The notes: generated from the sequence alone by a model not told the origin. Shown: positions 1,719 to 59,286, counted from the stretch's first letter. The stretch is 64,000 nucleotides of DNA from an uncultured Thermoplasmata archaeon (GCA_964601625.1 CAZROC010000001.1:46348-110347); one strand, 5' to 3'. Translations and numbers: made by a program.

Positions 1719-1728
1719 CGGGACACCT

Positions 1729-3188
1729 TTACTGTTTTTCTTTTCCCGCTGTTCGTATAACGTTGACCAGAGAAACCATGAACTCAAATATGTTCGGGGC
1801 ATATCCAAGCATGAACTGTCTGGCCCGCACCAGGTACACCATGTGATGAAATATTATTTTCGGACGCAGATAAAATTCCAGCATGGCCCTTTTCTGCCAC
1901 CCTATCAACTCCTCCCGGGAGATGTCTCCAACCTCTACAACAGCGTTCCCCCACCGCATGTATTCTTTCCAGTTGTTGGTTACAGCACGTATGCCATCCC
2001 CTTTCATAGCCATATCGTACAGTACCGACCCAGGGTACGGTGTTGCGATATTAAAAAAAGCTGCATCAAGGTCAAGATTTTTTGCGAAATCTATAGTTTC
2101 ACGAATCGTCTTCCTGGTCTCATAAGGAAGGCCGATTATGAACGACCCCCTTGTCTCTATTCCGAACTCTTTTGCGAGCCTGAAAGCCCTCCGATAGGCG
2201 TCCAGCGTGGTTTTTTTGCCGATTCTCTCAAGCATCTCCCCATTGCCCGTTTCAACTCCCATACTAAGTTGAACCAGGCCCGCCCTTTTCATAGCAGCCA
2301 GCACCTCTCTGTCAATCGTGTCTGCCCTTGCCAGACAGTACCAGTCAGACAGTACCAGTGAATGTCCAGACCCCTTTCAACGATCATATTGCTTATCTGT
2401 ATGGTCCTCTTCTTGGAAAATGTGAAGGTGTCGTCGGCGAAGACCACGCCCCTGACACCATATCTCCTGACAGCCTCTTCCAGCTCGTTAACAACATATT
2501 CCGGAGAATGAGGACGGAGGGGGGCCGGGTCCTTTGAGCGATAGCAGAAGATACACCTGTACGGGCAGCCACGGCTCGTCTGGACCATCGTGCTCCTGAC
2601 CAGCCCTTCGCCGGGGACTGGCATCTTGTAATTTTCTGGGTCAACCAGATGGCGGGCGGGGAAAGGAATTTCGTCAACATTCATTATCGGTGGGCGTGGC
2701 CGGGTCAAAACGATTCTCCTATCTTTTCTGAAACCAATCCCATCTATCGTTTCGTATTCGCCCCCGGACTCCAGAACACGAACCAGCTCAGACAGTGTGA
2801 CCTCCCCCTCCCCCCTGACCACAAAGTCTATCCAGGGACTCTCTTTCAACGTCTCCGCGGGCAGAGCAGAAGGATGAAAACCGCCCGCAATGGTGACTGT
2901 CTCTCCAGAAGACTCCTTCACCCGTCTGAGAAACTCTGCCACCGTGGGCATCTCTGGGGTCGTCGCTCCCGCACCCACAATATCCGGCCTGAAAGACAGG
3001 GTTTTTTCAACAGCCCTTTCAAGTGTGAGACCCTCTGCTTCGGCGTCCACTATGTGGACGGTGTGACCTCCCCTTTCAAGCACCGAAGCGAGATAAAGGA
3101 GTCCCAGTGGAGGAAGAACGATTTTCCTGCGACCGAGTTTAAAACGGCGATAAACGCCAGCATCAGGTCTTACCAGCACAACATTCAT
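1729..3188 (-). pseudogene. B12-binding radical SAM protein; frame interrupted by a 14-bp tandem duplication (it appears as ORFs 2289..3188 and 1729..2304)
   Basis: The N-terminal ORF has a B12-binding-like region followed by SRGCPYRCIFC (CxxxCxxC). The C-terminal ORF continues the radical SAM fold (AAMKRAGLVQLSMGVETGN). Removing one copy of cagacagtaccagt (2332-2359) gives the continuous reading ...HWYCLARADTIDREVLAAMKRAGL.... Confidence 0.7.
2332..2359. repeat. Perfect 14-bp tandem duplication (cagacagtaccagt x2) inside the radical SAM gene
   Basis: Read directly: 2332-2345 is identical to 2346-2359. The unit length is not a multiple of 3, so it shifts the frame. Confidence 0.9.
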
Positions 3189-3304: not shown

Positions 3305-4111
3305 TTGATAAAAATGGACAGAGATTTCACATTCGCTGTATACCAGAAAATACTGGACACGCTTGTTGAAACAGGATACACCTTTGAAACGGTAGCAGAA
3401 GCGCTGGAAAACGAAAACAGGGGTACAGCCGATGGGGAAACAGGGAAAAAAATATGTATTATCAGACACGACGTGGACCACTCCCCAAAAAAAGCCCTGA
3501 AAATGGCCCTCTTAGAAAAACAAAAAAACATCCACGCCACCTACTATTTCAGGTTCTTAAAAAACATCTACCAGCCAGACACAATGAAAAAAATAGAAGA
3601 AATGGGACACGAGGTAGGGTACCACTATGAAACATTGTGCAAAAAGAAAGGCGACAAAGACCAGGCGTGGGCCCTTTTCCTTGAAGAACTCGCAGATATG
3701 AGAAAACACGTTGACATAAAAACCGCATGCATGCACGGGAGCCCCATGTGCAAATACAACAACCTTGACATCTGGCAGGAACACAAACCCGAAGAAGCAG
3801 GCCTCCTCGGCGAAGCATATCTATCTTTTGACTTCTCAAAGTGGTTTTATTTTTCAGACACCGGAAGGAGATGGGACTCAAAATATAGTGTTCGGGACGG
3901 TGTCACTAATGGAAAAAATACGGATGTAATTAGTAGTTTTCAACTGATTAGATTTATAAAGAGAGAGAAACCTGATAAGTTATATATAACTGCACATCCA
4001 TCCAAATGGGCACATAATATGAGTGAGTGGTTTATAATTCTAGCCAATCATATGGCTAAAAACCCCATAAAGTTGATTATAAAGAAGATGTGCTCAAAAA
4101 ACAAGTGCTAA
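3305..4111 (+). CDS. Polysaccharide deacetylase-like protein (divergent CE4-like); paralog of 17366..18232
   Basis: IIRHDVDHS...ATYYF... is shared with the ORF at 17366..18232 (LGIRHDVDHSL...TTYF). The 3' third of the gene is strongly AT-rich. Confidence 0.5.
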   Translation: MIKMDRDFTFAVYQKILDTLVETGYTFETVAEALENENRGTADGETGKKICIIRHDVDHSPKKALKMALLEKQKNIHATYYFRFLKNIYQPDTMKKIEEMGHEVGYHYETLCKKKGDKDQAWALFLEELADMRKHVDIKTACMHGSPMCKYNNLDIWQEHKPEEAGLLGEAYLSFDFSKWFYFSDTGRRWDSKYSVRDGVTNGKNTDVISSFQLIRFIKREKPDKLYITAHPSKWAHNMSEWFIILANHMAKNPIKLIIKKMCSKNKC

Positions 4112-5013: not shown

Positions 5014-6882
5014 GTGAGCATGAAAACAGTTCATCTGAGCAAGCGAGTTAATATTTTTATATTCCTGTCCCTCCTCTTTCTCTCTATCGCTAGCCGGTAT
5101 CCCGTTACACCACATGAGATAGGGGCTGACTCTTTTTATATACACGAGCTAGGGGAAAGCATAACTAAAAGGGGATACGCGATGTGGATTCTCCATCCAC
5201 TCGCCTATTTCGGTTTATATCCCCAGTCGTACCCAGCGGCTGTACCTTTTTTGATATCCGCCGCCCAGCAGTTAACGGGTCTTCCTATGGAGTATGTTAT
5301 ATATTTAGCAGGCCAGATATTCGGAATAATCGCCCTTATGGGGGCATACTTACTCGCTGGTGAGTTTTGGAATGATGATCGTTTCAAATTTTTATCCGCT
5401 GCCGCTTTTTCTCTTTCTCCCATAATCATCAAATTCACGTGCTGGACGATTTCCACAAGGGGCCTGTTTCTTACCTTGACACCTTTAATGCTCGGTTTGA
5501 TTCTTAAGACCAGAAATCTTGAAGGGAGCGAAAAAGTGGCATATCTCATAGTTGGTGTTTTTTTTCTCATCACCCTCGCATTGATTCACAGGATGTTTGG
5601 CCTGATAGTAATAACAATATTAATATTTTATATATTAATGTGGATTTTTAAATTAAGTATAAGGCGTTTTAACTATAATAGTATATATAGAACTACCGGA
5701 AAGATAGGCATAATCACAATGTCAACTATCATAATTATCTTTGCGTCAATTATATTATTTATTTCCATAGAAAATATATATAATGCGACAGATATACATA
5801 TATCCCTTGCTCCATCTTCTGTGCGAGCATCCGTATTTATAGGTCTGATAATATCCTTATTTCTCTCCGTGTATCTATGGTTTGTCAGCAGGGACAGACG
5901 GCCCCTAAAACAGGTAACTTCAACTGCCATAGTGTTCTTGGGCGCATCCCTATTTTTCGTTCAGTTCACCAAGTTCGCCCCCTGGCAGGACTTTTCCTGG
6001 CTGAGAACTATTCTGCCAGGGGAACTCCCCAAAGAAACTCTCCTAGATTTTATTGTGGGTCTCTGGATTGTTATGGGCGCCCGGATAGGCATATTTTTGA
6101 TCCCTGCTGTTGTTGGTATGCTGATTCTCCCCTTCACTTCAATAGCAGAGCCAAATAGAATCTTCCTAGTGGTCGCCCTATTCCTATTTTTCCCATTTTT
6201 CCACGTTGCCATGTATTTCTATCAGGTATTTTCGGTAGTATACTTCCTGCTGGGTGTTTATACCCTTTTGTTTGCTTATAGGCTATTAAGTGGGGAAAAA
6301 AGAACCCTGAGAAAAACCGGCAGAGAGCGCCAGATTGACACACACAGTAATCATAACCTTCATAAAGTGAAAAGAAAGTCACGCTTGGAACTCTCAGAAG
6401 AGAGGATAGATAAAATGAGAAAAAACGTCGCGATCGGGTTCGTAGTTGTTATCCTAATAGCATCCAGTGCTTTTACTATATATACAGTAGAATATCGTTT
6501 ACAGAATACTGGTAAATATGGTTTCAAAAACTATATGGAAGAACATGAATACACAGTTGGATTATATTTAAAAATATATAAAAACGATGCACCTATTTAT
6601 CCTGGGGCACGCATTGGTGCAATATGGGGGGAAGAGCCGCACAGAGCTCCTGAAGATGTTGAGGTGGTCCGAAAAGAGCCGCCTTCATTGTTTGATTTTT
6701 ATGGGTGGTTCGTATACTTTAAACAACCCGTTGAACAGGTTTATACATCAAAATATACTCCTTGCCCAGCGTATAAGTTCAGAACAGACCCCGAAGGAAA
6801 AATAGAAAACATGCTTGAAAACGGGCTCATTATCTACTATAATGGAAGAGACACAGTATGGTACACGTTTCCGAAAACATAA
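5014..6882 (+). CDS. Polytopic membrane protein with a C-terminal soluble domain; possible GT-C-fold glycosyltransferase or polymerase (ArnT/PMT-like). Not AglB
   Basis: More than 10 predicted TM helices over ~450 aa, then a ~170-aa hydrophilic C-terminal domain. No WWDYG motif, so not an oligosaccharyltransferase. Very low GC (~25-30%) through 5600-5900. Confidence 0.45.
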   Translation: MSMKTVHLSKRVNIFIFLSLLFLSIASRYPVTPHEIGADSFYIHELGESITKRGYAMWILHPLAYFGLYPQSYPAAVPFLISAAQQLTGLPMEYVIYLAGQIFGIIALMGAYLLAGEFWNDDRFKFLSAAAFSLSPIIIKFTCWTISTRGLFLTLTPLMLGLILKTRNLEGSEKVAYLIVGVFFLITLALIHRMFGLIVITILIFYILMWIFKLSIRRFNYNSIYRTTGKIGIITMSTIIIIFASIILFISIENIYNATDIHISLAPSSVRASVFIGLIISLFLSVYLWFVSRDRRPLKQVTSTAIVFLGASLFFVQFTKFAPWQDFSWLRTILPGELPKETLLDFIVGLWIVMGARIGIFLIPAVVGMLILPFTSIAEPNRIFLVVALFLFFPFFHVAMYFYQVFSVVYFLLGVYTLLFAYRLLSGEKRTLRKTGRERQIDTHSNHNLHKVKRKSRLELSEERIDKMRKNVAIGFVVVILIASSAFTIYTVEYRLQNTGKYGFKNYMEEHEYTVGLYLKIYKNDAPIYPGARIGAIWGEEPHRAPEDVEVVRKEPPSLFDFYGWFVYFKQPVEQVYTSKYTPCPAYKFRTDPEGKIENMLENGLIIYYNGRDTVWYTFPKT

Positions 6883-10092: not shown

Positions 10093-11283
10093 TCATTTTT
10101 CTCCCAGAACCCGGAAATATAACTCCTCCATTTTTAGAGAGTTCTTCTTCCAGTCTGCGTTTTCTCTCACCCATTCCAGGTTGTTTTTTATGGCGTTCTC
10201 TCTGAACTCTTCGTCTTCAACCGAGCGTATTATGTACTCCGAAATGGAGTGAATGTCCTGGGGGTCCACGAGGAAACCTGTTTTTCCGTGTTTTACCATC
10301 TCCCGGTTCCCGGGTATATCCGTGGCTATCACAACACAGCCGCAGGCCATTGCCTCGTACATTGAGAGGGGGCCCTGGTCTTTTTCAGGTATCATGACCG
10401 CCACGTCTGCCATGTTGTAATACACCGCCATCTGCTTGTGTGGAATAAAGTCACTCACAAAACGCGTTTTCTCCCTGACCCCCAGTTTACTGGCCAGCTT
10501 TTTCAGTTTCTTTTCGTACTTCTCTTCACCGCCAGCTCTCAACAGCACAAGGTACAGGTCCTGCCGGCCCGTGGTATCTATGGCATGAGCAAAACCAGCC
10601 AGTATCTTATCAATGTTGTAGAAGGGCGACATATTTCTGGGGCTGAGAACGACACGTGCGTCCTCGGGGATGTCCAGCGTTTCCCTGAGGGCCTCTGCCT
10701 CCGCTTTTCTTTCAGTGTTAAAAATAGAGAGGTCAACTCCCCACGGGAAGGCGTGTATTTTCTCCTCGGGGATGTTGAACCGCTTGGATATTAGCTTCTT
10801 TGCGTGGTTTACCAGGACGGTTATGGCCGCCGCCTCTTCAAACGCTTTTTTTCTCAGCTCATATCGTCTTTTCCCGAGTTTTTTCGTGAAAAAGTGCATG
10901 TAGTTTGTCACATGAGTAAGGCTCATCAGACCCCAGTTTGTCAGGATATATGGTCTGAAACCGGAGAGATAGGCGTATTCCCCGTATTTTGCCAGGTCGT
11001 GGGCGTGGAGTATGTCCGGTTTTATTTCTCCCAGAATCTTCTTTATTTCACGCACACGCACACGTCTGTTGACGGGTTCAATGAAGTTCTCGGCGTATCT
11101 GAGGTGGAAGAGGTGGTGAAAAGACACATCCGGGCGCAGCTTATTTTCTCCGGGAAAAGTGTAGGACAGGACGTGTACTTCCCATCCTATGTCGTTGAAG
11201 TAGTTGGCCCACCGCTGGACATGTACAGAGTTGGCGGGTCCGAGCAAAGCCACCTTCAGCCCTTCTTCTGCTGCATCCTTCAA
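10093..11283 (-). CDS. Glycosyltransferase family 4 (same subfamily as 23635..24789)
   Basis: MYEAMACGCVVIATDIPGNREMVKHGKTGFLV; the N-terminus ...NSVHVQRW... parallels ...SPHLQRW... of the GT at 23635. Confidence 0.8.
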   Translation of the reverse strand: MKDAAEEGLKVALLGPANSVHVQRWANYFNDIGWEVHVLSYTFPGENKLRPDVSFHHLFHLRYAENFIEPVNRRVRVREIKKILGEIKPDILHAHDLAKYGEYAYLSGFRPYILTNWGLMSLTHVTNYMHFFTKKLGKRRYELRKKAFEEAAAITVLVNHAKKLISKRFNIPEEKIHAFPWGVDLSIFNTERKAEAEALRETLDIPEDARVVLSPRNMSPFYNIDKILAGFAHAIDTTGRQDLYLVLLRAGGEEKYEKKLKKLASKLGVREKTRFVSDFIPHKQMAVYYNMADVAVMIPEKDQGPLSMYEAMACGCVVIATDIPGNREMVKHGKTGFLVDPQDIHSISEYIIRSVEDEEFRENAIKNNLEWVRENADWKKNSLKMEELYFRVLGEK

Positions 11284-12653
11284 CCCGTTTCCCCTCCTAC
11301 ACTATCAGGTGGTACACGGGAAACAACGTACTGGGTTTTTCCGGATGGGGCGGGGGGTATTCTGTCAACGATTTCAACCTCAACGTCAACGCTCTCGCCG
11401 ACCTCCCTCTGCACCACCGATTTTACCCACGCCAGGTTTTTGTCCGTTGGCCTTTGTTTTGGTTTGACAAATATCTTTATGTGATAGAGATCGCTCTGAT
11501 ATACCTGGAACTTTTCCATCCACTGTCCTTCTGGTAACTGGGTGAGAACAGCAAAAAGGAGACCGTGTATTCTCTTACCGTCCGGTGTTATAAGGTAGTC
11601 AGTTATTCGTCCCTCTATACCCCTCAAAAGAGAGAGGCCACGTCCACAAGAGCAGAGTTCTTCTCGTATGGCCGAGACGTCACCCACCCTGTATCGTATG
11701 AATGGCATTGAAAAATTTCTCAGATCCGTTATATATATTTCTCCCGTCTCCTCCACGACGCTTTCTCCGTCTTTTACCACTTCTACTATCACATTTTCCT
11801 CCGAGATGTGGAGACCTTCATGGCGATCACATTCATACGCCACCAGCGATGTCTCTCTGCCGCCGTAGCCGTCAAAGACATCACATTCAAACGTGGATGA
11901 GATGAAATCCCTCTGGAAATCGTGGAGTTTTTCTGCCGTGCTGAAAACCGCTTTGAGGGGTATCTTTATGTCGTGGGAATCAACGTACCTGGCAAACAGG
12001 AAGAGGGCGGATGCGTATCCCTTTATGGTCTTCGGTTTGAATTTCAGCACATCTCTGGCTATCTTTTCTAGGGCGTCGTCTCCGAGGTCGTATGCGCTGA
12101 AAATCTTTCTCCGCGCCACCGCTCTCTTGATTTTATATGACAGCCTCCGATGTGCGGCCAGGTCTATGGGAGCCCCCCATATCAGAACCTGTTTGTCGCC
12201 TATATGGTGTCCGCCCCACTCCATCCCCCGATAGTCAGCTGCAGAGCCCCAGCTGACTCTGTCCTTGGTGAGATAGAACTTAACCGGCTCTCCCGTTGTT
12301 CCACCCGTATAGAAGGCGGTGGTTCTGGGGAAAAGTTCGGGATTCAGGAGGTCTTCTGTGTGCTCCCTTATCTCCTTTTTTGTCAGTGGCGGAATCTTTT
12401 CTAGGTCTTTTATGGTTTTTATGTCGTCCGGTTTCAGGCCGCTGCTCCTGAGGAGACGGTGGTAGTATGGGACATTTTCGTAAGCAGTTTTTATCAGTCG
12501 TCTCAGTTCTTTTTGCTGGTGTTTCTTTATTTCTTCCGGGCTATGCCACTGGGTTTTTCGGAGAATTTTGAGGTATTTCATGTTCTTCGTGCCTCTCATG
12601 AGGTCAAAGGTTGGAAAGATTACCTTTTGAACGGTGAAGTTGTACACAGACAT
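11280..12653 (-). CDS. Phenylacetate-CoA-ligase-like / coenzyme F390 synthetase-like adenylate-forming enzyme (CapK-like)
   Basis: FYTGGTTGEPVKFYLT is the AMP-binding P-loop-like motif of the PaaK/F390 synthetase family. The size (~457 aa) and a paralog at 15953..17194 support the call. Confidence 0.65.
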   Translation of the reverse strand: MSVYNFTVQKVIFPTFDLMRGTKNMKYLKILRKTQWHSPEEIKKHQQKELRRLIKTAYENVPYYHRLLRSSGLKPDDIKTIKDLEKIPPLTKKEIREHTEDLLNPELFPRTTAFYTGGTTGEPVKFYLTKDRVSWGSAADYRGMEWGGHHIGDKQVLIWGAPIDLAAHRRLSYKIKRAVARRKIFSAYDLGDDALEKIARDVLKFKPKTIKGYASALFLFARYVDSHDIKIPLKAVFSTAEKLHDFQRDFISSTFECDVFDGYGGRETSLVAYECDRHEGLHISEENVIVEVVKDGESVVEETGEIYITDLRNFSMPFIRYRVGDVSAIREELCSCGRGLSLLRGIEGRITDYLITPDGKRIHGLLFAVLTQLPEGQWMEKFQVYQSDLYHIKIFVKPKQRPTDKNLAWVKSVVQREVGESVDVEVEIVDRIPPAPSGKTQYVVSRVPPDSVGGETG

Positions 12654-12668
12654 TCTTTATCCTCCTGT

Positions 12669-13442
12669 TTAGCTCCAGTCCGCCCGTCTCCAGTCATAAT
12701 TCTCTTTCACTACCTTCGCCGGGTTTCCCGCTATGAAAAGATTTCCTTTCTCAAAGCTCTTTGTGACGACAGAGCCCATTCCCACGAGTGTGACCGGGCC
12801 TATTCGCACCCCCATGTTAAATTTGCAACCGGCGCCTATCCACACGTGATCTCCTATGAAAATGGGAGCAGGTTTTCTGTCTGCTCCATGGGTCCAGAAA
12901 GAAGAATCTACACCACCTATTACACAGGCCCGTCCGATATATATGTCCCGTGATGTGTCAAAATAGTGTCTGTCTGTCACTTCGCACAGTTCTCCCAGAT
13001 TCTCATCGTATCTGCCGCGTATGCTGTTGAAATTTCCCATCCTCACATTCTTTCCTATGACTATCTCCCCACCGCCTTTTATTATGTTAAAACTCCCTAT
13101 CTTAACACCTCCTCTCAGAAGACCACTCCGGCCCCCCTTTTCTTTTGATGGGTCTATCCCGTGTTCGCCCACTTTGAAGAGTTTTACGTCTGTGACCAGG
13201 TTAAAGCACCCGATTGAGACAAAGTCCCCTATGTCCACGACGTCTGCGTCCAGCACACAGAGCCACCCTATCCTGCTTTTTTTTCCTATCTTCACACCCC
13301 TGCATATTCTGTAGGCGATTTTTCTCAGAGTGTTAAACGGGAGCAAAGATGCGAGCAATCTAGTCAGCCGGGGCTGCATGTTCTCTGCAAAACCATGGGG
13401 TGGACTTAATATTTTCTGAGCGGACAAGGGATGACAAAACAA
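12669..13442 (-). CDS. Hexapeptide-repeat (left-handed beta-helix) acetyltransferase, WcaF-like
   Basis: Hexapeptide repeats (IGDFVSIG, IGKNVRMG, IGDHVWIGAG, MGVRIGPVTLVG). An alternative start at the internal ATG (13379) is possible. Confidence 0.75.
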   Translation of the reverse strand: MFCHPLSAQKILSPPHGFAENMQPRLTRLLASLLPFNTLRKIAYRICRGVKIGKKSRIGWLCVLDADVVDIGDFVSIGCFNLVTDVKLFKVGEHGIDPSKEKGGRSGLLRGGVKIGSFNIIKGGGEIVIGKNVRMGNFNSIRGRYDENLGELCEVTDRHYFDTSRDIYIGRACVIGGVDSSFWTHGADRKPAPIFIGDHVWIGAGCKFNMGVRIGPVTLVGMGSVVTKSFEKGNLFIAGNPAKVVKENYDWRRADWS

Positions 13443-13524
13443 CCGACAGGATTATATAACCCATATTTCACACGTTTAGGATGTTTAAGTGTGTCTGGAA
13501 ACTTAAACCGGCGGAGGACGAGAA

Positions 13525-14748
13525 GTGAGAGTCTGTATGGTCTACCCCAAAGACCTCAGAACGCTGAGATACGATGGGCGTGTTTTAAAAGAGGCACAGA
13601 CACTTATTAAAGCAGGACATGATGTGATAATAGCTTGCGACGACCGGTCTTTTGATGTAGAAACCATATATGTGGACGGGGTCGGGATTAAATGCGCCGG
13701 GACCCGGGGGCGTAAATCGTTTGAGTGGCTGGCGGACCTGGTGGCACAGCACGTTGTCCACCTTTTTTCAAGGGCATTTCTTGACAGAGGTCTGAGTGTG
13801 AGACCGATGTACATCGGACTGTTGCTGGGCTTGAAAGCCGACGTTTATCATGCCCACGATCTCTCTGCGCTTCCCTCTGCTCTTTTTTGTGCCAGAATGA
13901 CGGAATCTCTTTGTGTCTATGACTCGCATGAATTCTTCCCCGGAGAAAAAAATTATAAATTACGAAGATTTTTTATACGATTTTTTGAAGGTTCTATGAT
14001 ACGGAGATGTGACGCTGTCATCACCGTAAACGATTCCATTGCGGGCCTGTTGAAAAAGATATACAGCCTGGAAAAGGAAGTGGTTGTTTTGCGCAACTTC
14101 CGCAAACAGACGCCGCTGGCCCGGAGCAACCTGTTGCGTGAAAATCTGGGCATACCCCCATCTGCCAGGATACTGATATATCACGGCAACCTGTCGCCGG
14201 ATAGGGGGGTCGAAAAACTCGTGGACGTGGCGAAACAGATGCCCGAGGTACACGTGGTCATGGTGGGGAATGGTGTTCTACGGGATTCCCTCATGAAAAG
14301 AGCCCGCTCTGAGGACGTAAAAAACATATCCTTCCGTGACAGAATAAAACAGGAAGACCTCATGAGGTATCTCTCCTCAGCAGACGTGGGTCTGCATCCC
14401 ATAGAGAACACCTGTCCCAACAACTATTACAGCCTGGGAAACAAGATAGGCGATTACATCATGGCTGGAATCCCCATCGCCGCTAGCGACTTCCCGGAGA
14501 TGAGAAAAATAATACTAGGAGAAGACATAGGCGTTGTGTTTGACCCCGACGATATAGAGAGCATTGTCAAAGCCCTCCGCTCCCTTCTGAGCAGCGACGC
14601 ATACGAAAAAAAGAGAAGAAACGTCCTATCCGTCAGAGAGAAATACTCGTGGGAAAACGAGGAGAAGAAACTGGTTAGACTTTACCGGGCTTTGGGCAAA
14701 AAACGGCTCTCTGCCAGAAGGCGATGTGAAAAAGAGGTGAGCGCTTGA
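13525..14748 (+). CDS. Glycosyltransferase family 4 (tandem paralog 1)
   Basis: EVHVVMVGNG...YYSLGNKIGDYIMAGIPIAASDFPEM is the GT4 C-terminal domain. Its stop overlaps the next GT start as ATGA (14745-14748). Confidence 0.8.
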   Translation: MRVCMVYPKDLRTLRYDGRVLKEAQTLIKAGHDVIIACDDRSFDVETIYVDGVGIKCAGTRGRKSFEWLADLVAQHVVHLFSRAFLDRGLSVRPMYIGLLLGLKADVYHAHDLSALPSALFCARMTESLCVYDSHEFFPGEKNYKLRRFFIRFFEGSMIRRCDAVITVNDSIAGLLKKIYSLEKEVVVLRNFRKQTPLARSNLLRENLGIPPSARILIYHGNLSPDRGVEKLVDVAKQMPEVHVVMVGNGVLRDSLMKRARSEDVKNISFRDRIKQEDLMRYLSSADVGLHPIENTCPNNYYSLGNKIGDYIMAGIPIAASDFPEMRKIILGEDIGVVFDPDDIESIVKALRSLLSSDAYEKKRRNVLSVREKYSWENEEKKLVRLYRALGKKRLSARRRCEKEVSA

Positions 14749-15956
14749 AAATATGCATGCTGCTCATGAACAAATACGAACTCCTGCTGACGGACTCGCG
14801 GGTGCTGAAAGAGGCAAAGAGTTTAACAGAGGCAGGGCATGAAGTTGTCATAGCATTATACGACGAGAGATACACAGAAGGATACGTTGACGCTTTTGGC
14901 GCGCCCATCAGGTGCGTGGGACTCGGAAAAGAGACCGGTGGAGGCAGGGGTGGTAAAAAACACGGGCACTGGACATATTCCCTCATAAAACTCCTCCCGG
15001 ACAGGGTCGCCGACTTCTTTTTCGGGATGGTTGAGAGGGCTCTTTTGTTCAGGATAAACAAGCGGTTTCTGGAAGTGGCGATATCAGAGGAACCAGATGT
15101 GTATCACGTCCACGATTATGTAGCGCTGCTCTCCGGGTGGATAGCAGCGAAGACCATTGGTGTGCCAGCCATATACGACTCCCACGAGTGCTATGTGTAC
15201 GTCCAGATGTCTCCCAAAAAAAGGCGTCTGGTCACATTGATGGAAGGAGTCATGGCCAGGCAATACGCCCGCATTATTACTGTAAACGAAACCTGTGCAA
15301 ATACGATAAAACGCGTTCACGGAGTCAAAAAGCCCGTCATCATCTCAAACTACGCCATGTATATACCTCAGACAAAAACCGATGTTCTGAGGAAAAAATA
15401 CGGTATACCGGAAGACAAAAAAATCGTCCTCTATGTTGGTGCACTCCAGGAGGGGCGGGGACTGTACACCGTGCTTGATGCTGCTCCCAGAATTGAAGAG
15501 TGCGTCTTCGTTCTCATGGGACCCGGGCCCCTCAGAAAAGAACTCGCCGGGGCTGTGAAAAAAAGAGGGCTTAAAAACGTTATAATCGCAGACCCCGTCC
15601 CTCCCACACAGTTGCTGGAGCACATCGCATCGGCTGATGTGGGCCTCTGTCTGATAGAGAACATTTCAAAGAGCTATTATTACAGTCTCCCGAACAAAAT
15701 AGGGGAATACATAATGGGTGGGATACCCATCGTAGTAAGCGATTTTCCGGAGATGAAAAAACCCGTCGTAAAATACAACATAGGAATAACCTGCGACCCG
15801 GAAGACCCCGAAGAGCTGGTCAGTGTGTTGAAAGAGTTGCTCAGACCGGAGGTTTACAGCGAAAAAATAAAACATATGGCTGATGCACAGAGAGAGTTCA
15901 ACTGGGAGAACGAGGCAAAAAAGCTCGTAGACCTCTACAACTCCCTCTCAAGTTAG
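14745..15956 (+). CDS. Glycosyltransferase family 4 (tandem paralog 2)
   Basis: YYYSLPNKIGEYIMGGIPIVVSDFPEM closely parallels the upstream GT. Confidence 0.8.
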   Translation: MKICMLLMNKYELLLTDSRVLKEAKSLTEAGHEVVIALYDERYTEGYVDAFGAPIRCVGLGKETGGGRGGKKHGHWTYSLIKLLPDRVADFFFGMVERALLFRINKRFLEVAISEEPDVYHVHDYVALLSGWIAAKTIGVPAIYDSHECYVYVQMSPKKRRLVTLMEGVMARQYARIITVNETCANTIKRVHGVKKPVIISNYAMYIPQTKTDVLRKKYGIPEDKKIVLYVGALQEGRGLYTVLDAAPRIEECVFVLMGPGPLRKELAGAVKKRGLKNVIIADPVPPTQLLEHIASADVGLCLIENISKSYYYSLPNKIGEYIMGGIPIVVSDFPEMKKPVVKYNIGITCDPEDPEELVSVLKELLRPEVYSEKIKHMADAQREFNWENEAKKLVDLYNSLSS

Positions 15957-17194
15957 AACGGCGGGGGAACGTTGCTTATAACATACCTGCTTTTTCCCGT
16001 TGGTGTCTTTGGTATGTCGTCCACGTACTCAAAGCTTATGCTGACATCTCTGTCAAACTTCCAGATGGTGTTTTTTATAAACACTTCATGTTCCTCACCC
16101 CACCCCTCTTTCTTTTGCACCTTTACCAGGATGTCAGTTTTGCTCTTTTGAATTATCTGGAAGGCGATCATGGGCAGATGAGCGGAGAGAAAGTGGTTGG
16201 CCAGCTCAGTTCCGTTAAAGACGGCGTTGTTTGTGACTATGTAGTCCGTGGTCCGGCCTTTCACCGGGCCAAGGAGGGGCAGTGTCCTGCCACAGGAACA
16301 TGGCTCTTCTTTCATGACGGCGACATCGTTGAGCCGGTATCTGATAAAGGGCATGGCATAGTTGAAAAGGTCCGTGGACACAACGACCCCCTCTTCTCCG
16401 GGTGACACGTTTTCTCCGTCTCTTATAAGCTCCAGGATGCTTCTGTCAACCGATATGTGAAAGCCCTCGTGTCTGTCGCACTCATATGTGTTCACCCCCC
16501 CGTCGTTCACACCGTAGTGGTCAAAACATTCTCCGAGAACCTCGTCTATAACCCTCCTGTACTCGGGGAGAAGCACCTCCGAAGTGGAAAAAACCGCCTT
16601 TTTTCTCATATCAATGCCACGCTTCTTTACGTGCAAAGCGAAATGATAGAGAGCAGAGGGCACCCCCCTGTATATTTGTATGTTTGATTTGTTTATTTTT
16701 TCTATGTACTCATCAAGTATTTCCTCGTTCCATCCTATGCACTCAAGAGTGAGATCGCTCCGGCCCAGGCCGCCTCCCGTAAAAGTCACTATCCGGTCTC
16801 CCTTTTTGTATCCCGCCCAGCGCCACCCCCTCAGCTGACAGCGCCCCGTTGCGTACATACTGTTTTTGGTGAGATAATACCTGAAACTGCGGCCCGTGGA
16901 ACCGCCGGTGTTGTGGACGTGCAACCCGAACTTTTCCTTGTTTCTGGCCAGGAAATCGGGGTTGTCCCTCATCATCTCCTTGTCCACAATGGGCAACTTT
17001 TGCAGGTCCGCCGCCGTTTTTATGTCGTCCGGTGTCAGACCCCGCTTTTTCATCTCCCTGTGCCAGAAAGGGACGTTCCTGTAGGCGTGTTTTATGAGGG
17101 CCCTCAGGAGTTTGTTCTGCAACGCCTCCAGATCCTCTTTTTTGGCCCACTGGTTTTTCTCAAAGTTTATGAGACGGGGGTTCGTTGTCAACAT
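15953..17194 (-). CDS. Coenzyme F390 synthetase-like / PaaK-like adenylate-forming enzyme (second copy)
   Basis: HVHNTGGSTGRSFRYYLT motif; collinear similarity to 11280..12653 (for example ...IRYRLNDVAVMKEEPCSCGRTLPLL vs ...IRYRVGDVSAIREELCSCGRGLSLL). Confidence 0.65.
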   Translation of the reverse strand: MLTTNPRLINFEKNQWAKKEDLEALQNKLLRALIKHAYRNVPFWHREMKKRGLTPDDIKTAADLQKLPIVDKEMMRDNPDFLARNKEKFGLHVHNTGGSTGRSFRYYLTKNSMYATGRCQLRGWRWAGYKKGDRIVTFTGGGLGRSDLTLECIGWNEEILDEYIEKINKSNIQIYRGVPSALYHFALHVKKRGIDMRKKAVFSTSEVLLPEYRRVIDEVLGECFDHYGVNDGGVNTYECDRHEGFHISVDRSILELIRDGENVSPGEEGVVVSTDLFNYAMPFIRYRLNDVAVMKEEPCSCGRTLPLLGPVKGRTTDYIVTNNAVFNGTELANHFLSAHLPMIAFQIIQKSKTDILVKVQKKEGWGEEHEVFIKNTIWKFDRDVSISFEYVDDIPKTPTGKSRYVISNVPPPF

Positions 17195-17365
17195 ATTAAA
17201 ACAAAGAGGGTATTAGGCGTATATATAAATTACTCGGGGGGGTTTCATTTATCTGCACAGTATGAGCCATACAGGCTCTCCAAAAAAATACTTATATGCT
17301 CGGCCGATGAAGGAATACAGGAAAAAATCCTGCGAACTGATAAAATACCTATAAAAGGTGAGACT

Positions 17366-18232
17366 GTGAATATAAAAGATGAGATTTACAAAAGGCTCCC
17401 GGACATAAACAGGGTGCGAACATACCACATGGACAAATATCGTAAATTCCTCGCGAATCTCTTGTCTAATAAAAACGTAGAAATCATACCCCTCAGAGAA
17501 TTCTCCAAACGCCCAACCGAAGATAAGATACTCCTAGGCATAAGACACGACGTTGATCACAGTTTAGAATCCGCTCTAAGGATGGCAAAGATAGAAGCGA
17601 AATTGGGCATACAAACGACATATTTTATACTCCACACTGCCCCCTACTATTTCAAGGTACAGGATGGAAAAATCGTGCGCAACGAATCCGTGATAGACAT
17701 TTTACGCACAATCCAGGACGAATACGGCCATGAAATAGGCTTTCACAATGACCTTCTAACCCTCCAGATAGTTTATAGAATAAGCCCAAGAGAGTATTTG
17801 AGAAAGGAACTATCTTATCTGAGAAAAAACGGCATTAAGATTGTAGGCACCGCCGCGCACGGTTCAAAGTATCACGACCATTATAAATACATCAATTACT
17901 ACTTTTTTAAGGAATGCGAAAAACCGCATCCAAACTTTCCGAATACAGATTATGTCCGCATCGGCGATAAAAAGGTCATATTTGAAAAGGGGACATTAAA
18001 AGAATTTGATCTTGAATACGAGGCGTATTTCTTACCATACGATTATTACTTTTCAGATTGCCAGACCGTTAGAGGAGGTAAACTATGGCACCCTGAGATG
18101 CTGGATATAAAAAAGATCCCCCTGAATTCCAGGATTCAAATATTAATCCACCCGTGCCGCTGGTACAGTTATCATGAACTGATTACTTCCATTAAAAAAC
18201 GCATATTGCATAAAATAAACGCCGAAAGATGA
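17366..18232 (+). CDS. Polysaccharide deacetylase-like protein (paralog of 3305..4111). The start is uncertain: GTG 17366 with a GGTGA Shine-Dalgarno, or ATG 17429
   Basis: LLGIRHDVDHSLESALRMAKIEAKLGIQTTYF; the long upstream ORF extension (from 16913) overlaps the convergent F390-like gene and is not credited. Confidence 0.5.
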   Translation: MNIKDEIYKRLPDINRVRTYHMDKYRKFLANLLSNKNVEIIPLREFSKRPTEDKILLGIRHDVDHSLESALRMAKIEAKLGIQTTYFILHTAPYYFKVQDGKIVRNESVIDILRTIQDEYGHEIGFHNDLLTLQIVYRISPREYLRKELSYLRKNGIKIVGTAAHGSKYHDHYKYINYYFFKECEKPHPNFPNTDYVRIGDKKVIFEKGTLKEFDLEYEAYFLPYDYYFSDCQTVRGGKLWHPEMLDIKKIPLNSRIQILIHPCRWYSYHELITSIKKRILHKINAER

Positions 18233-19812: not shown

Positions 19813-20751
19813 ATGATGACCCCGGGCATTTACAAGAAGTATTTTATAGACGATTTCTTCAATACGATGTTCAAAAAATCCAAAGCATATACTTATAAAC
19901 TAGATGAAAAAGGCGTGATCACAATAAACTACATTGAAAGAAAATTGGGAGAACAATACAACCCGGTGGCCATTGCTACTTATGCACTAGGAGAATACAA
20001 CAAGTATTATGATACCAGATCGGCTACTGCCAAAAACTTGTTTCTTTCACACGCTGATTGGTTGGTGGAGAATGCTATCCCAAAAAAAGATTTTGTGGTA
20101 TGGCACTACAATTTTGATTGGATATCTCCAGGCTATCGTTGCAAAGCTCCGTGGATATCCGCTATGGCGCAAGGATTAGCAATGAGCGTTCTAATCCGCG
20201 CGTGGACGATCACGGGGGATGAAAAATATCTTTCAACAGCCAAATTAGCATTTAATTCATTCAAAGCCACAGTGGAGGACGGCGGTGTCGCAAGGAAGGA
20301 TAAGAAGGGATATCTCTGGTATGATGAATACGTTTGCGAAAAATCAGCAAACGTATTGAACGGTATGATGTTCGCTGTGATCAGCCTCCACGAATATTGG
20401 GAGGTAACAAAGGATCCTGAGGCAAAGGAGCTTTTTGATGAAGGGGTACGAACCTTGGAGGCGAATCTGAAGCGGTTTCGGCTGGAGCTCGGGTTCTTCA
20501 GATATTCACGATATGATGATTACCTGCTCATATATTCTGGAGAAAAATATCATAAATGTCACCTTCAACAACTGAGATATCTAATTCAGGTCACGGATAA
20601 TAAAACGTTCAAGAAATACCTCGCACTCTGGGAAAAAGCCGACAGGATAAAAGGAAAGAGGCTCTTCCTATTCATGAAGTTATATAGGATATATCTCCGG
20701 ATCATCCAAAGAAAGGTGAAAAAAGAATGGGAGCGCAGAAAAAATGAATAA
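19813..20751 (+). CDS. D-glucuronyl C5-epimerase C-terminal-domain homolog (polysaccharide-level uronic acid C5-epimerase family)
   Basis: [18 protein letters not shown] matches the W-S-A-M-A-Q-G motif of heparosan glucuronyl C5-epimerases. [16 protein letters not shown] and HLQQLRYL... also parallel the Glce C-terminal (alpha/alpha)-barrel. Compared from memory, not by search. Confidence 0.55.
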
Positions 20752-21241
20752 AAAAATAAAGGAACTGATCGCCGTTGTCCTGGAAAAAGTGCCATTAAAA
20801 ATCGGATACGACCTTAGAGAAAAATTCTATAAACGAGTTGCAAAGAGAATCGGGAACAATCTGTGGATGAACAGGAATGTCAGGATTGAATGTCCCGAAT
20901 ACCTAGAATGCGGGGACAATGTTGTCATCAATATGTGGACATGGATAAATGCGAGAGGCGGGGTGAAAATAGGCAATGATGTTCTCATCGGTCCCAGAGT
21001 GATAATACACTCTGCCAATCATCGGTTTAAAAACCGAGACAAACCAATCAGGCTCCAGGGCCACGATTTCAAAAAGGTCACAATTGGAAATGATGTATGG
21101 ATTGGAGCAGGTGCGATAATCCTTCCGGGGGTTACAATCGGGGATGGGGCCATTGTGGGGGCAGGTGCAGTTGTTACAAAAGATGTGGAGCCCTATGCAA
21201 TAGTAGCCGGTGTTCCGGCGAAAAAAATAGGTGAGAGATAA
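20744..21241 (+). CDS. Hexapeptide-repeat sugar O-acetyltransferase (maltose/galactoside acetyltransferase-like)
   Basis: [18 protein letters not shown]...[33 protein letters not shown] is the classic LbH acetyltransferase C-terminus. Confidence 0.8.
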
Positions 21242-21445: not shown

Positions 21446-22993
21446 CTAGATTCGTCTTCTGATTGGATTTAAATGGACAAGGATTTCTTTGACATCGCTT
21501 TTTTCTTTTGGGGACAATCCTAATATGTAAAACAGCCCTGCGAACAGCCCGGTACCGATAATAAGATATGCCACCAACATCATCAACCCGGTGGGGGGGA
21601 GATACATTTGAAGACCATACAGTAGCCCCCCTACGAATAGAGAAAGAACATACGGGACTGCCAGGACTTCCCTAGTGTATCTCCGCACATCTATTTTGAG
21701 AAGTCTCCAGGCATGTCTGTGTATCAACGGCATCACGACGAAGTATGGTATGGTGGTTCCAAGAACTACTCCCAGAAGGCCATAATATCTAACAAGAATT
21801 ATACTTAATAATAAATTGAGTACGGCGTTACCCATGTTTAAATAAAGTATCGGCTTGAACCGCTCTTTTGCTAATAGAGTGTTTCCTATAGTCCCGAAAG
21901 GAGCCAGTATGAACCAATATAAAAGATAGACCCTTGCAACCAATCCTATCCATTCATAACTTTCTCCCATCCAGAAACGAATAATGTGATCTGCGAGAAC
22001 AAAAATTGGAACAAGAGCCATAAATGTGATCGCACACCTATACTTGCTGCCCGTATACAGGATTCTTTCAATCTTTTCTTTCTCCTTTAGAGTGTCCATT
22101 TCAGTGATGGCAGGAAGGAGAGCGCTTCCGGATAGATACCAAACTGATTGCACAACCTGATGCAACTTTCTGGCTACAGAATAGAATGTAATCGCAGACA
22201 TGGAAAGAAACACTCCGAGCACGATCTGGTCAGTGTAAAGAATAATCATGCCAGCTATATTTGTGAAAAAGATAACAACGCTGAAGGTGAATATGTTGCG
22301 CAATGTCTTTGTCGTCATATATTCCCGTTTAAGTGTGATGTAAGGTGCTAACCTGTGGATTACGAAGATGTGAATTACCTGTAGGAGTGTGCTTGCTATT
22401 ACCTGAAAGAATATGAGCTCAATAATCCCGTACCCTGACGAAAGAACAACCCATGTAATAGCAGCATTAACAGAACTCCCAAAAACAGTCAGTTTGGCTG
22501 CGATATCGTATCGCTGAAGGCCCGCATATATCGATTGAAATGAACGTATAGGCCAACTGGTCAGACTGGTAACTGCCGTTATATAAAAAATATATCTAGC
22601 TATCCAATAGTCCTCAGTATCTATTTTGAACAGAGACAAACCCGATGTTCCTATAAGTATAAGTGCAGAAAATATAATAAGTCCAACTCCAATGTAAAAA
22701 AGAAAAACTGAATTAATCATTTTATTAATTGTCTCCTTGTCTCCCCTAGCATTATACTGGGCCACATATTTTACTAAGGCTGTTCCAAAGCCAAAATCCA
22801 ACAGTCCAAAATATCCTGTTACACTACCTACTAAGAGCCAAATGCCATACATCTCGGCTCCAACATGATGGACTATGAATGGAAACAGGATGAAGTTGAG
22901 AGCGTATCTCCATAGCCGAGCAAAACTGTTGGCAAGAGTATTTGCCGCAATCTTCGTCTTTGTACTATACATGTTTCCACTCCTGTCACTCAT
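21446..22993 (-). CDS. Polysaccharide/oligosaccharide flippase (MOP superfamily, Wzx-like)
   Basis: ~515 aa, 12-14 predicted TM helices, the N-terminal pattern of polysaccharide-biosynthesis (Wzx) proteins; AT-rich coding sequence. Confidence 0.75.
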   Translation of the reverse strand: MSDRSGNMYSTKTKIAANTLANSFARLWRYALNFILFPFIVHHVGAEMYGIWLLVGSVTGYFGLLDFGFGTALVKYVAQYNARGDKETINKMINSVFLFYIGVGLIIFSALILIGTSGLSLFKIDTEDYWIARYIFYITAVTSLTSWPIRSFQSIYAGLQRYDIAAKLTVFGSSVNAAITWVVLSSGYGIIELIFFQVIASTLLQVIHIFVIHRLAPYITLKREYMTTKTLRNIFTFSVVIFFTNIAGMIILYTDQIVLGVFLSMSAITFYSVARKLHQVVQSVWYLSGSALLPAITEMDTLKEKEKIERILYTGSKYRCAITFMALVPIFVLADHIIRFWMGESYEWIGLVARVYLLYWFILAPFGTIGNTLLAKERFKPILYLNMGNAVLNLLLSIILVRYYGLLGVVLGTTIPYFVVMPLIHRHAWRLLKIDVRRYTREVLAVPYVLSLFVGGLLYGLQMYLPPTGLMMLVAYLIIGTGLFAGLFYILGLSPKEKSDVKEILVHLNPIRRRI

Positions 22994-24792: not shown

Positions 24793-25260
24793 GTGGATAC
24801 AATTAAATACACTCAAAAATATGAGGAGATGATGACAGCCCGTTTCAAAACGTGGAAAAAACCTGAGTTTGACGAGAGGAGTCTCACCAAGTGGAACTGG
24901 ATGTGCCAGCACCCGGAGAATCTCGTTCTCGGTTATGGGTGCGATATCGGCGCCTTCACATACATAAATGCCGCTTTCGGAGTTGAAATAGGGGAGAACG
25001 CACAAATAGGATCCCATTGTTCAATTTATTCAATTTCAACAATAGACGGAAAAAAGGGCAAAGTCGTTATAGAAAAAAATGCGCGAATCGGGAGTCACAG
25101 TGTAGTCATGCCCGGCGTTCGTGTAGGTGAAAATTCAGTCGTGGGAGCGTTCAGCTTCGTTAACAGAGACATACCTCCAAACGTTCTGGCGTTCGGTGTC
25201 CCCGCGCGAGTTATACGCCCTCTCACGGAGGAAGAAATGAGAGGTGCAGAGGATGAGTGA
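24793..25260 (+). CDS. Hexapeptide-repeat N-acetyltransferase (PglD/WbpD-like amino-sugar acetyltransferase candidate)
   Basis: LbH repeats (IGENAQIGSHCSI, IGSHSVVMPGVRVGENSVVGAFSFV); sits directly upstream of the DegT aminotransferase and 4,6-dehydratase. Confidence 0.75.
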   Translation: MDTIKYTQKYEEMMTARFKTWKKPEFDERSLTKWNWMCQHPENLVLGYGCDIGAFTYINAAFGVEIGENAQIGSHCSIYSISTIDGKKGKVVIEKNARIGSHSVVMPGVRVGENSVVGAFSFVNRDIPPNVLAFGVPARVIRPLTEEEMRGAEDE

Positions 25261-26428
25261 ATGGAAAATACCTCTCTTTCGCATATACTGGGATGAAGAA
25301 GATGTCAACGCTGTCAAAGAAGCTATTGAGCGTGGCATGTTCTGGGCCGTCGGTCCAGAAGTGAAAAAATTTGAAGAGAAAATCGCGGAGTTTCTTGGAA
25401 GGCGATATGCTCTTGTTTTTAATTCGGGCACTTCTGCCCTGCATGCACTGCTGTTAGCTCACGGGGTGGGACAGGGGGATGAAGTCGTTGTACCTTCTTT
25501 CTCGTTTATATCTACTGCCAACTCTGTTCTTTTTGTAGGAGCAAAGCCGGTCTTCGCCGATATAGAAGAAGAAACCTTTGGTCTGGATGTTGAAAATGTG
25601 CAGGAAAAGATAACGTCGCACACAAAAGTCATAATGCCCATGCACTATGGTGGAGGGGTGGCCAGAGATATAACTGCTCTGCGTGAGATAGCGGAAGACC
25701 ACAACATCATTTTGATAGAAGATACCGCGGAGTCCTTTGGGGCAAAAAAAGATGATGTTTTTGCGGGGTGTTTCGGTCAATCCGCCGCTCTTAGCTTCTG
25801 CCAAACAAAAATTTTCACCACAGGAGAAGGCGGCGCAATAGTAACAGACAACCGCGATATATATGAACGAGCAAAGCTCGTTAGATCACACGGAAGAGCC
25901 GAAACGGCGGATTATTTTAATTCTACAGAATACATGGATTATGTATCTCTTGGGTATAACTTCCGCATGGCTAACATTCTGGCAGCACTGGGTATATCCC
26001 AGCTCAAGAAGGTTGAAAAGCTCATTTCAATGAGAAGGTCCGTGGCTTCTCAAATAACAGAGTCTCTGTCGGATGTTGAAGGAATAAGAACACCCGTGGA
26101 ACCTGCTGGACATTTTCATGTATATCAGATGTACACAGTACGTGTTTCAGGAGGAAAAAAAACTAGAGATGCTTTAAAGAAACATCTTGAAAAGCGTGGA
26201 ATAATGAGCAGGGTTTATTTTAACCCGATCCACAGAACATCTTTTTACGTCGGTATGGGATACGGGGGTATCTCCTTGCCTGTTACAGAAAAGATTTCTA
26301 AAGAGGTTCTGACACTTCCCATATTTCCTGATATGACATCTGAAGAGATAGAATATATAACCGGTTCAATAAAAACGTTCTTTGAAAAAGAGGAAAAGGA
26401 GCGGAGGGCTAATGAGAGCCAATGCTGA
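25244..26428 (+). CDS. DegT/DnrJ/EryC1/StrS-family PLP-dependent sugar aminotransferase
   Basis: Typical family layout (...NSGTSALHALL...EVVVPSFSFISTANSV...) with the conserved Lys region (...SFCQTKIFTTGEGGAIV). Confidence 0.85.
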   Translation: MQRMSEWKIPLFRIYWDEEDVNAVKEAIERGMFWAVGPEVKKFEEKIAEFLGRRYALVFNSGTSALHALLLAHGVGQGDEVVVPSFSFISTANSVLFVGAKPVFADIEEETFGLDVENVQEKITSHTKVIMPMHYGGGVARDITALREIAEDHNIILIEDTAESFGAKKDDVFAGCFGQSAALSFCQTKIFTTGEGGAIVTDNRDIYERAKLVRSHGRAETADYFNSTEYMDYVSLGYNFRMANILAALGISQLKKVEKLISMRRSVASQITESLSDVEGIRTPVEPAGHFHVYQMYTVRVSGGKKTRDALKKHLEKRGIMSRVYFNPIHRTSFYVGMGYGGISLPVTEKISKEVLTLPIFPDMTSEEIEYITGSIKTFFEKEEKERRANESQC

Positions 26429-28312: not shown

Positions 28313-28393
28313 GTGGTATAGAAAGGCGGGGTTGTTCTTAACCCTTTCTTTGGTTCGGAGATGTTTATATATCGGGGGTTGTTTTTCTCCACC

Positions 28394-29737: not shown

Positions 29738-29744
29738 TATGCCC

Positions 29745-39165: not shown

Positions 39166-39206
39166 CAACACCACCTCAATTATAGCACAGAACCAGACAG
39201 GTCGGA

Positions 39207-59184: not shown

Positions 59185-59286
59185 ATCGTTTTTTTGCAGA
59201 GCGTTTTCATGCATGGCACGTCCTCTCACCAGAAAAAAGGCGGGTGGAGAAAAAGATTTATCCCCTTTATCTCGTTGGGTGTGTCA

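Follow-up and report, generated by a model that had tools for sequence, protein, structure and literature searches.

The window considered here is a stretch of 64,000 nucleotides from an uncultured Thermoplasmata archaeon (GCA_964601625.1 CAZROC010000001.1:46348-110347), and within a cluster of glycan-assembly genes it carries two minus-strand genes, hereafter A and B, whose products belong to the CapK family of ligases and may decorate the sugars of a surface glycan (coordinates are collected in Table 1). The original prediction had placed two paralogous adenylate-forming enzymes of the F390-synthetase/PaaK kind at this locus, flanking a WcaF-like acetyltransferase gene and a pair of GT4 glycosyltransferase genes, and both open reading frames are present where it had put them, bracketing precisely these three genes. 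The two proteins give a single collinear BLASTP alignment of 430 columns with 36% identity (E 7e-82), a similarity that by sequence comparison is far above chance, and each carries a P-loop of the PaaK type (motif A3, (S/T)(S/G)G(S/T)TGxP), which reads TGGTTGEP in A (residues 116-123) and TGGSTGRS in B (residues 96-103). B lacks the N-terminal helix of A as well as a helical insert of 15 residues.

The surroundings of the two genes differ. A follows the acetyltransferase gene after 15 nucleotides, an AGGAGG read from the sequence lies 7 nucleotides 5' of its ATG and directly past the acetyltransferase stop, and the stop of A shares 4 nucleotides with the start of the GT4 gene that follows. Acetyltransferase (LbH1), A and GT4 form one transcription unit, and A is predicted to be translationally coupled to the GT4 gene. 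B appears to be a single-gene transcription unit. At their 3' ends B and the convergent GT4 gene share 4 nucleotides, and in the divergent intergenic region upstream of B a TATA-box-like TTTATATATA at 17220..17229, about 31 nucleotides ahead of its ATG, is a putative promoter element. The gene divergent from B (17366..18232, plus strand) encodes a soluble protein of 288 amino acids without a family match.

A and B belong to the CapK family, which within the ANL adenylate-forming enzymes is a branch of the PaaK clade associated with glycan clusters. PF27533 (CapK_C) is the precomputed Pfam match for A, B and all 240 homologues listed, membership being taken from these precomputed hits, which come with no score for the PF27533 model. 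The family is very large, a search of 1.84 billion representatives of clusters at 50% identity yielding 5,199 at E <= 1e-30. Thirteen columns are invariant in an alignment of 81 sequences and also in one of 230 sequences, and all are kept in A and B (in A numbering Y263, C275, H282, E291, T309, P317, R320, D325, C336, G348, R349, Q386, and K439). The A5 YG, A7 (R)Yxx(x)D, A8 GR hinge and A10 Lys correspond to Y263/G264, R320-Y321...D325, G348-R349, and K439 in A and to Y227, R285-Y286...D290, G313-R314, and K401 in B; G264 is about 90% conserved in the 81 sequences and the other positions of these motifs are invariant. Across the family, conservation is at least 90% for the P-loop residues G118, T120, and G121, and an end-to-end alignment of the family profile with PaaK2 (2y4o) places the terminal GK of the profile on the TGK of PaaK2. 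Since the catalytic residues are intact, A and B look like active enzymes rather than pseudo-enzymes: the loss of the catalytic Lys or of P-loop residues, which would have spoken for the latter, is seen by alignment in neither protein.

The F390-synthetase/PaaK label, in contrast, holds as a superfamily resemblance and fails as family membership. The scores of A and B are 83.2 and 103.6 bits with the PaaK model TIGR02155 (cut-off 646.3), 113.7 and 123.8 bits with the PaaK model NF041878 (cut-off 700), 55.8 and 75.0 bits with the coenzyme F390 synthetase model TIGR03335 (cut-off 458.7), and 80.2 and 64.5 bits with the F390-synthetase-related model TIGR02304 (cut-off 251.9). As they are far under every curated cut-off, A and B are neither PaaK nor F390 synthetase. 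The best NCBIfam match, NF045666 for the DVU_1553 family of AMP-dependent coenzyme A (CoA) ligases, reaches 152.9 and 128.6 bits with a cut-off of 300, which by score places both proteins outside that family too. The description of A and B as CapK-like adenylate-forming enzymes with a PaaK fold in a glycan cluster is upheld, Pfam family, motifs, fold and neighbours all being in agreement. It is a sound annotation of an ordinary archaeal pair in a known family, and only the short-loop type of B and its link to a C5-epimerase (see below) are mildly unusual.

The predicted structures lead to the same place. AlphaFold2 models of A and B have a predicted local distance difference test (pLDDT) score of 93.1 and 92.5, respectively, and both are modelled with the two-domain PaaK-type fold. 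Foldseek places PaaK2, PaaK1 and BT_0428 at the top for A and PaaK1, BT_0428 and PaaK2 for B, with probability 1.00, E of about 3e-28 and 3e-30 to PaaK1 and PaaK2, and template modelling (TM) scores of at most 0.70. The next-nearest structures are 2-hydroxyisobutyryl-CoA ligase (HCL) and then NatL2, AjiA1 and ClxA. PaaK1 and PaaK2 of Burkholderia cenocepacia and BT_0428 are phenylacetate-CoA ligases and the best matches of A and B both in structure (Foldseek E of about 1e-28 to 1e-30) and in sequence (profile E 1e-42 to 1e-54); the two-domain fold, the P-loop, YG, (R)YxxxD, the GR hinge and the C-terminal GK are common to all of them. However, identity to these enzymes is only 21-24%, and A and B are found in a glycan cluster and not in a paa operon. 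The benzoxazole biosynthesis ligases NatL2, AjiA1 and ClxA share the fold class at about 20% identity, but they use aromatic amino-hydroxy acids, serve secondary metabolism and have no glycan context. NatL2 and ClxA turn the acyl-adenylate into an ester or an amide (PMC7204872, PMC12519233), a chemistry that we read as CoA-independent, and such direct formation of an ester or amide is what is proposed below for A and B.

The two ligases were described as paralogous, and this is correct in the deep sense that they are homologues which the first split of the sampled family sets apart, and not in the sense of close relatives. The best outside matches of A are 42-43% identical to it and those of B 50-56%; A is absent from the top 120 matches of B and vice versa, and B takes only rank 186 of 232 among the nearest relatives of A. 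When the neighbour-joining tree is rooted on PaaKs, its first split sets a B clade of eight members apart from the other 222 sequences, A included. By sequence A and B are thus ancient paralogues. A recent tandem or local duplication was also considered as their origin and is ruled out by the rooted tree and the nearest-neighbour ranks.

The B clade is defined by a segment of 38-40 residues that is 53 residues long in 171 of the 230 members and 47 in PaaKs. The 15-residue indel between A and B lies in this segment, which aligns with the PaaK loop (S)YGYGLFTGGLGAHY that holds the aryl-pocket residues Y136, F141, and A147; in the model of A the extra residues fold as two helices, 162-167 and 171-180, both missing from B. 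At positions Y136, F141, A147, A214, I236, and P245 of the PaaK1 pocket (numbering of the PaaK1 paper, with a SEQRES offset of 5) A has W159, D164, I175, A240, G262, and S269 and B has T139, G144, a gap, S205, H226, and G233, a mapping that is alignment-based and approximate in the loop. Five of the aryl-pocket residues, Y136, F141, A147, I236, and P245, are accordingly replaced in both proteins, and outside the loop A and B also differ from each other (A240 versus S205, G262 versus H226, S269 versus G233). These differences make it likely that A and B use different substrates, and they fit the proposal in the original prediction of two distinct modification steps.

The glycan-assembly cluster spans about 4-28 kb of the window and has a G+C content of 0.39-0.50, compared to 0.53-0.56 in the flanking housekeeping DNA, which suggests a variable or horizontally exchanged island. 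The genes for GalU, a nucleotide-sugar dehydrogenase and WecB are on the high-G+C side of the boundary. In total the cluster contains seven GT4 genes and three hexapeptide acyltransferase genes, together with a methyltransferase gene. Counted with it are also the genes, taken up below, for the phosphosugar transferase, Alg13, Alg14, the frameshifted B12-binding radical S-adenosylmethionine protein and the membrane protein of 620 amino acids. The acetyltransferase reading frame upstream of A can be extended to 13442, and its matches to the NCBIfam models WcaF, WbbJ and NeuD are under cut-off. The dehydrogenase, which had been named as the source of uronic acids, is a genuine member of its family, its TIGR03026 score being more than twice the cut-off (Table 1). 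The D-glucuronyl C5-epimerase-like protein matches the heparan-sulfate C5-epimerases 6hzz, 6i01 and 4pw2 of the PDB with E of about 1e-21 to 1e-19, so that a homologue of the heparan-sulfate type, at E of about 1e-21 to the animal enzymes, is found in an archaeon. The presence of a glucuronyl C5-epimerase gene implies hexuronic acid residues in the glycan.

Table 1. Features of the CapK ligase locus and the surrounding glycan cluster; positions are counted from the first nucleotide of the window.
Feature	Position	Strand	Basis
GT4 glycosyltransferase, Glyco_trans_4_2 type	10093..11283	-	Pfam
CapK-family ligase A, typical long-loop type	11280..12653	-	457 amino acids; open reading frame, PF27533 CapK_C, weak AMP-binding match (Pfam)
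Hexapeptide-repeat WcaF/WbbJ-like acetyltransferase	12669..13379	-	Pfam Hexapep; gene call of 236 amino acids
Two overlapping GT4 glycosyltransferases	13537..14748 and 14745..15956	+	Pfam, gene calls
CapK-family ligase B, rare short-loop type	15953..17194	-	413 amino acids; open reading frame, PF27533
Divergent intergenic region upstream of B	17195..17365	-	Read from sequence
D-glucuronyl C5-epimerase-like	19816..20751	+	PF06662, 157.8 bits
Second hexapeptide O-acetyltransferase-like gene	20744..21241	+	Pfam, NCBIfam; overlaps end of epimerase gene
Wzx/MOP-type flippase	21446..22993	-	PF01943, PF13440; NCBIfam WZX_like under cut-off
Hexapeptide N-acetyltransferase-like (amino-sugar module)	24793..25260	+	Family matches
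DegT/PseC-like aminotransferase (amino-sugar module)	25244..26428	+	Family matches
PseB/PglF-like 4,6-dehydratase (amino-sugar module)	26382..27488	+	Family matches
GalU	27491..28465	-	NCBIfam galU 337.5 bits, cut-off 326.8
UDP-glucose-6-dehydrogenase-like nucleoside-diphosphate-sugar dehydrogenase	28361/28394..29737	+	TIGR03026 448.8 bits, cut-off 189.8
WecB UDP-N-acetylglucosamine 2-epimerase	29718..30845	+	NCBIfam wecB 313 bits, cut-off 210

The genes that accompany CapK homologues elsewhere were surveyed in 80 related loci from reference genomes with flanks of 10 kb. GT4 genes are found in 49 of these loci, GT2 genes in 26, Wzy_C in 23 and NAD epimerase/dehydratase genes in 14, and the immediate neighbour is most often a GT4 gene (13 downstream, 16 upstream). 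The pair of a CapK gene followed by a GT4 gene of the 4_2 type, as at A, recurs in locus L088, and a glycan-cluster context is consistent across about 90 loci, archaeal plasmids included. A conserved pairing of CoA ligase and acyltransferase was also sought and is rejected, no conserved adjacency being found in the 80 loci. A Methanolobus CapK homologue adjoins a UDP-sugar dehydrogenase gene; this cluster, from Methanolobus chelungpuianus (L085), also contains two ATP-grasp ligase-like genes and DUF354, along with an archaeosortase (Exosortase_EpsH) and a PEF-CTERM protein. Two full CapK genes occur in two of the 80 loci, the copies being 60% identical in L014 and 28% in L077, and among the best 150 representatives there are 10 proteins of about 880-980 amino acids in which two complete CapK modules are fused in tandem, nearly all of them with P-loop and catalytic Lys retained in each half. 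CapK ligases thus occur repeatedly in pairs, which fits two steps, a heterodimer being less likely here.

The context of the B type is narrower. The eight members sampled include relatives of Candidatus Proteinoplasmatales and are often encoded beside a C5-epimerase or another (alpha/alpha)6-barrel protein. The closest named relative of B is that of Candidatus Proteinoplasmatales archaeon SG8-5 (52% identity), and its gene is immediately downstream of one for a 744-amino-acid protein with a C5-epimerase domain that is 28% identical (E 6e-16) to the C5-epimerase of the window. The genes divergent from the B-type homologues in L092 (3879..4826) and L094 (227..1405) have only weak Pfam matches, to GH76/GH88 and GH127, and by BLASTP their products match the C5-epimerase of the window at E 1.1 and 0.004, i.e., not significantly and marginally. 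GH76/GH88 and GH127 are (alpha/alpha)6-barrel families, a fold class shared by several sugar epimerases.

The two enzymes most likely spend ATP on linking small amines or acids to the sugar chain. More specifically, A and B, two anciently diverged and catalytically competent CapK ligases, may amidate hexuronic acids of the surface glycan, a reading to which we give an about even chance of being right. Each enzyme would bind ATP and adenylate a carboxylate by means of the P-loop, the ribose-binding Asp and the C-terminal Lys, and the acyl-AMP would then be captured directly by an amine without the involvement of CoA. The likeliest carboxylates would be those of hexuronic acids made through the dehydrogenase and WecB encoded in the window and then epimerised at C5 by the C5-epimerase, and the nucleophile would likely be an amino acid or a small amine. 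The lipid-linked repeat unit of the archaeal surface glycan would thereby gain an amide-linked substituent, presumably ahead of extension by a neighbouring GT4 enzyme. Because the loop lining the PaaK acyl pocket differs between them, A and B probably differ either in the residue that they modify or in the substituent that they add.

Family, motifs, fold and gene context are observed, and it is the substrate, the polarity of the reaction and the stage of action that we infer. Amidation of uronic acids is plausible by analogy with VpsH of Vibrio cholerae (see below), and it is also supported by the dehydrogenase, WecB and C5-epimerase genes of the window and by the SG8-5 orthologue of B beside a C5-epimerase. 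On the other hand several points weigh against it. The proposal for this organism is drawn from its genes, VpsH is likened to A and B by annotation and locus content, and the activation chemistry of VpsH is left undefined in its own paper (PMC13463779). By score the dehydrogenase is closer to the UDP-glucose than to the UDP-N-acetylmannosamine type, which leaves more than one candidate for the uronic acid made. Among the 80 loci a Ugd-like dehydrogenase was found within 10 kb in only three and a C5-epimerase in none; the former count is weak and uninformative rather than contrary, since the dehydrogenase of the window itself lies 11-16 kb from A and B. Finally, neighbours suited to other chemistry are frequent in these loci, with clusters of polysaccharide deacetylases (Polysacc_deac_1) in 14 and 7 loci, asparagine-synthase-like proteins in 13 and FemAB-like GNAT clusters in 8 and 6, and PIG-L is among the recurrent types as well (L087).

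It is tempting to speculate that the short-loop B and the heparan-type C5-epimerase form an archaeal module that first epimerises and then amidates, yielding amino-acid-amidated L-hexuronic acids that resemble iduronic acid or N-acetylgulosaminuronic acid (GulNAcA), and that A adds a second, different amide or acyl group. The glycan would then bear two kinds of decoration, a type not known to have been described in Thermoplasmatota, but in this specific form the idea is tentative and we rate it as rather unlikely.

The best of the alternatives to amidation of a uronic acid is the reverse polarity, in which A or B or both would adenylate a free small acid, such as an amino or hydroxy acid, and transfer it to an amine or hydroxyl of the sugar, for example in the N- or O-acylation of a 4-amino-4,6-dideoxy sugar from the DegT/PseB-like module. 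All characterised enzymes of the PaaK clade (PaaK, HCL, NatL2, ClxA) activate small free acids (PMC7204872, PMC12519233). The sugar N-deacetylases mentioned above, two more of which are found in a Methanosarcina plasmid, and the DegT aminotransferases among the family neighbours, which have a counterpart in the DegT/dehydratase module of the window, keep this polarity in play. The window is, however, without a deacetylase gene, and the hexapeptide N-acetyltransferase-like gene that adjoins DegT is the obvious user of the amine that it makes. Furthermore, the synteny of B with a C5-epimerase points to uronic acids, and the only genetic precedent, VpsH, gives an amide in which the carbonyl derives from the sugar (PMC13463779). 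We thus regard the reverse polarity as possible but improbable.

More doubtful is the notion of true acyl-CoA ligases, according to which A, and perhaps B, makes an unusual acyl-CoA that the adjacent hexapeptide acyltransferase transfers to the glycan. It would account for the short distance between the acyltransferase gene and A in one transcription unit, and the best NCBIfam matches (the DVU_1553 family, FlxY and PaaK) as well as the structural matches PaaK and HCL are CoA ligases. Yet all such models score far under cut-off (e.g., 153 versus 300 and 83 versus 646 bits), B has no adjacent acyltransferase, and hexapeptide transferases are found in only 6-10 of the 80 loci and, unlike GT4, never as the immediate neighbour. 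This makes it quite unlikely that either ligase serves such a transferase. A single modification step carried out by one enzyme composed of A and B is less likely still, to the point of being very improbable. PaaK enzymes are dimers, and the two-module fusions described above are common, but the full catalytic set in nearly all fusion halves fits two active sites. A and B moreover are in separate transcription units flanking three other genes, they are deep paralogues with different closest relatives, and the SG8-5 orthologue of B has no A-type partner within 10 kb. That a housekeeping phenylacetate-CoA ligase or coenzyme F390 synthetase has ended up in the cluster by chance, as PGAP-style names on homologues ("phenylacetate--CoA ligase family protein") could suggest, or that A and B are pseudo-enzymes, is scarcely credible and effectively refuted by cut-offs and context: TIGR02155 gives 83 and 104 bits versus 646 and TIGR03335 56 and 75 versus 459, the PaaK1 pocket residues are not conserved, no paa genes lie near A and B, the context is that of glycan clusters throughout, and every catalytic residue is intact.

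Other genes of the window touch on glycan assembly or on its host. At the left edge (5..1808) genes for a phosphosugar transferase (Glycos_transf_4), an Alg13-like and an Alg14-like protein are present, and together these three form a eukaryote-like set that starts an N-acetylglucosamine-N-acetylglucosamine core on a polyprenol carrier. They are followed by a minus-strand gene (1729..3188) for a B12-binding radical S-adenosylmethionine protein that is split into two overlapping open reading frames of 299 and 187-191 amino acids; by tblastn an intact SG8-5 homologue of 474 amino acids matches it in two frames, -2 and then -1, which points to a frameshift, as would arise in a pseudogene, by a programmed shift or from an assembly error. 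Further plus-strand genes encode a soluble protein of 265 amino acids without a family match (3314..4111) and a 620-amino-acid protein for which 13 membrane segments are predicted and which matches no family of Pfam or NCBIfam (5020..6882), the latter being a candidate polymerase or other glycan-handling membrane enzyme. Proteins of about 520-620 amino acids without a Pfam match are also encoded in the loci of SG8-5 (535 amino acids), Methanohalobium, Methanosarcina and Methanolobus. The window is archaeal by content, a point not raised in the original prediction, with genes for aRF1, an XPD-type helicase, a Toprim primase-like protein and ArgRS, and the host is probably a relative of Proteinoplasmatales. 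Its contig is present in both an ENA and a JGI metagenome assembly. Large predicted proteins include a peptidase C25 of 983 amino acids (36223..39174), a Kelch-repeat protein of 1403 (54009..58220) and an M14 carboxypeptidase of 822 (58759..61227), all three of which fit a protein-degrading lifestyle. A tRNA-Pro gene lies at 32489..32582 and a tRNA-Ser gene at 44017..44104.

CapK-like genes annotated as "phenylacetate-CoA ligase family" are very common in polysaccharide loci, and the long-loop and short-loop variants found here in one cluster would provide a convenient pair for decoding substrate specificity. The namesake of PF27533 is Cap1K from the cap1 locus of strain M, which specifies the type 1 capsule of Staphylococcus aureus; Cap1K shares this Pfam family with A and B by precomputed annotation, it is encoded in a capsule locus just as A and B are in a glycan cluster, and we know of no published functional proof that it adds taurine. 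AglU (MMP1084) of Methanococcus maripaludis is a threonine-adding and possibly F390-synthetase-like enzyme, which is not counted as evidence here. ATP-grasp uronate amidoligases, e.g., the C-terminal domain of Cj1438 of Campylobacter jejuni, carry out ATP-dependent amidation of capsule glucuronate. The outcome would be like that proposed for A and B, whereas the fold is unrelated and the intermediate is an acyl-phosphate and not an acyl-adenylate; the window contains no ATP-grasp gene, unlike the Methanolobus locus with its two. In the S. aureus type 1 capsule taurine is amide-linked to N-acetylgalactosaminuronic acid (PMC12043029), and similarly threonine is amide-linked to mannuronic acids in Methanococcus N-glycans (PMC11407970, PMC2952790). 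If A and B are uronate amide ligases, the origin of the amino-acid-amidated uronic acids in archaeal N-glycans would be explained.

To our knowledge the sole family member with genetic evidence for its function, dating from 2026, is VpsH. This protein (VC0924) of the V. cholerae Vibrio polysaccharide (VPS) cluster is annotated as CapK or phenylacetate-CoA-ligase-like (PMC12505965, PMC13463779), and together with Methanosarcina MA1063 it is among the BLAST matches of a "possible CapK protein" (PMC1569441). The glycine amide that L-GulNAcA carries in a lipid-linked disaccharide depends on VpsH, which acts after VpsJ has epimerised N-acetylmannosaminuronic acid at C5 and before the next GT4 enzyme (PMC13463779). 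VpsH belongs to a bacterium and is present in one copy, whereas the window has an archaeal host and two deep paralogues, and VpsJ is described as a new class of epimerase, whereas that of the window is of the heparan type (PF06662). The VPS cluster, on the other hand, is a glycan cluster of the Wzx/Wzy type that encodes homologues of WecB and WecC, the C5-epimerase VpsJ, acetyltransferases and GT4 enzymes, and the window has WecB, a dehydrogenase, a C5-epimerase, acetyltransferases, GT4 genes and Wzx as its corresponding parts, so that the putative module of C5-epimerase and B could be an independent archaeal counterpart of VpsJ and VpsH.

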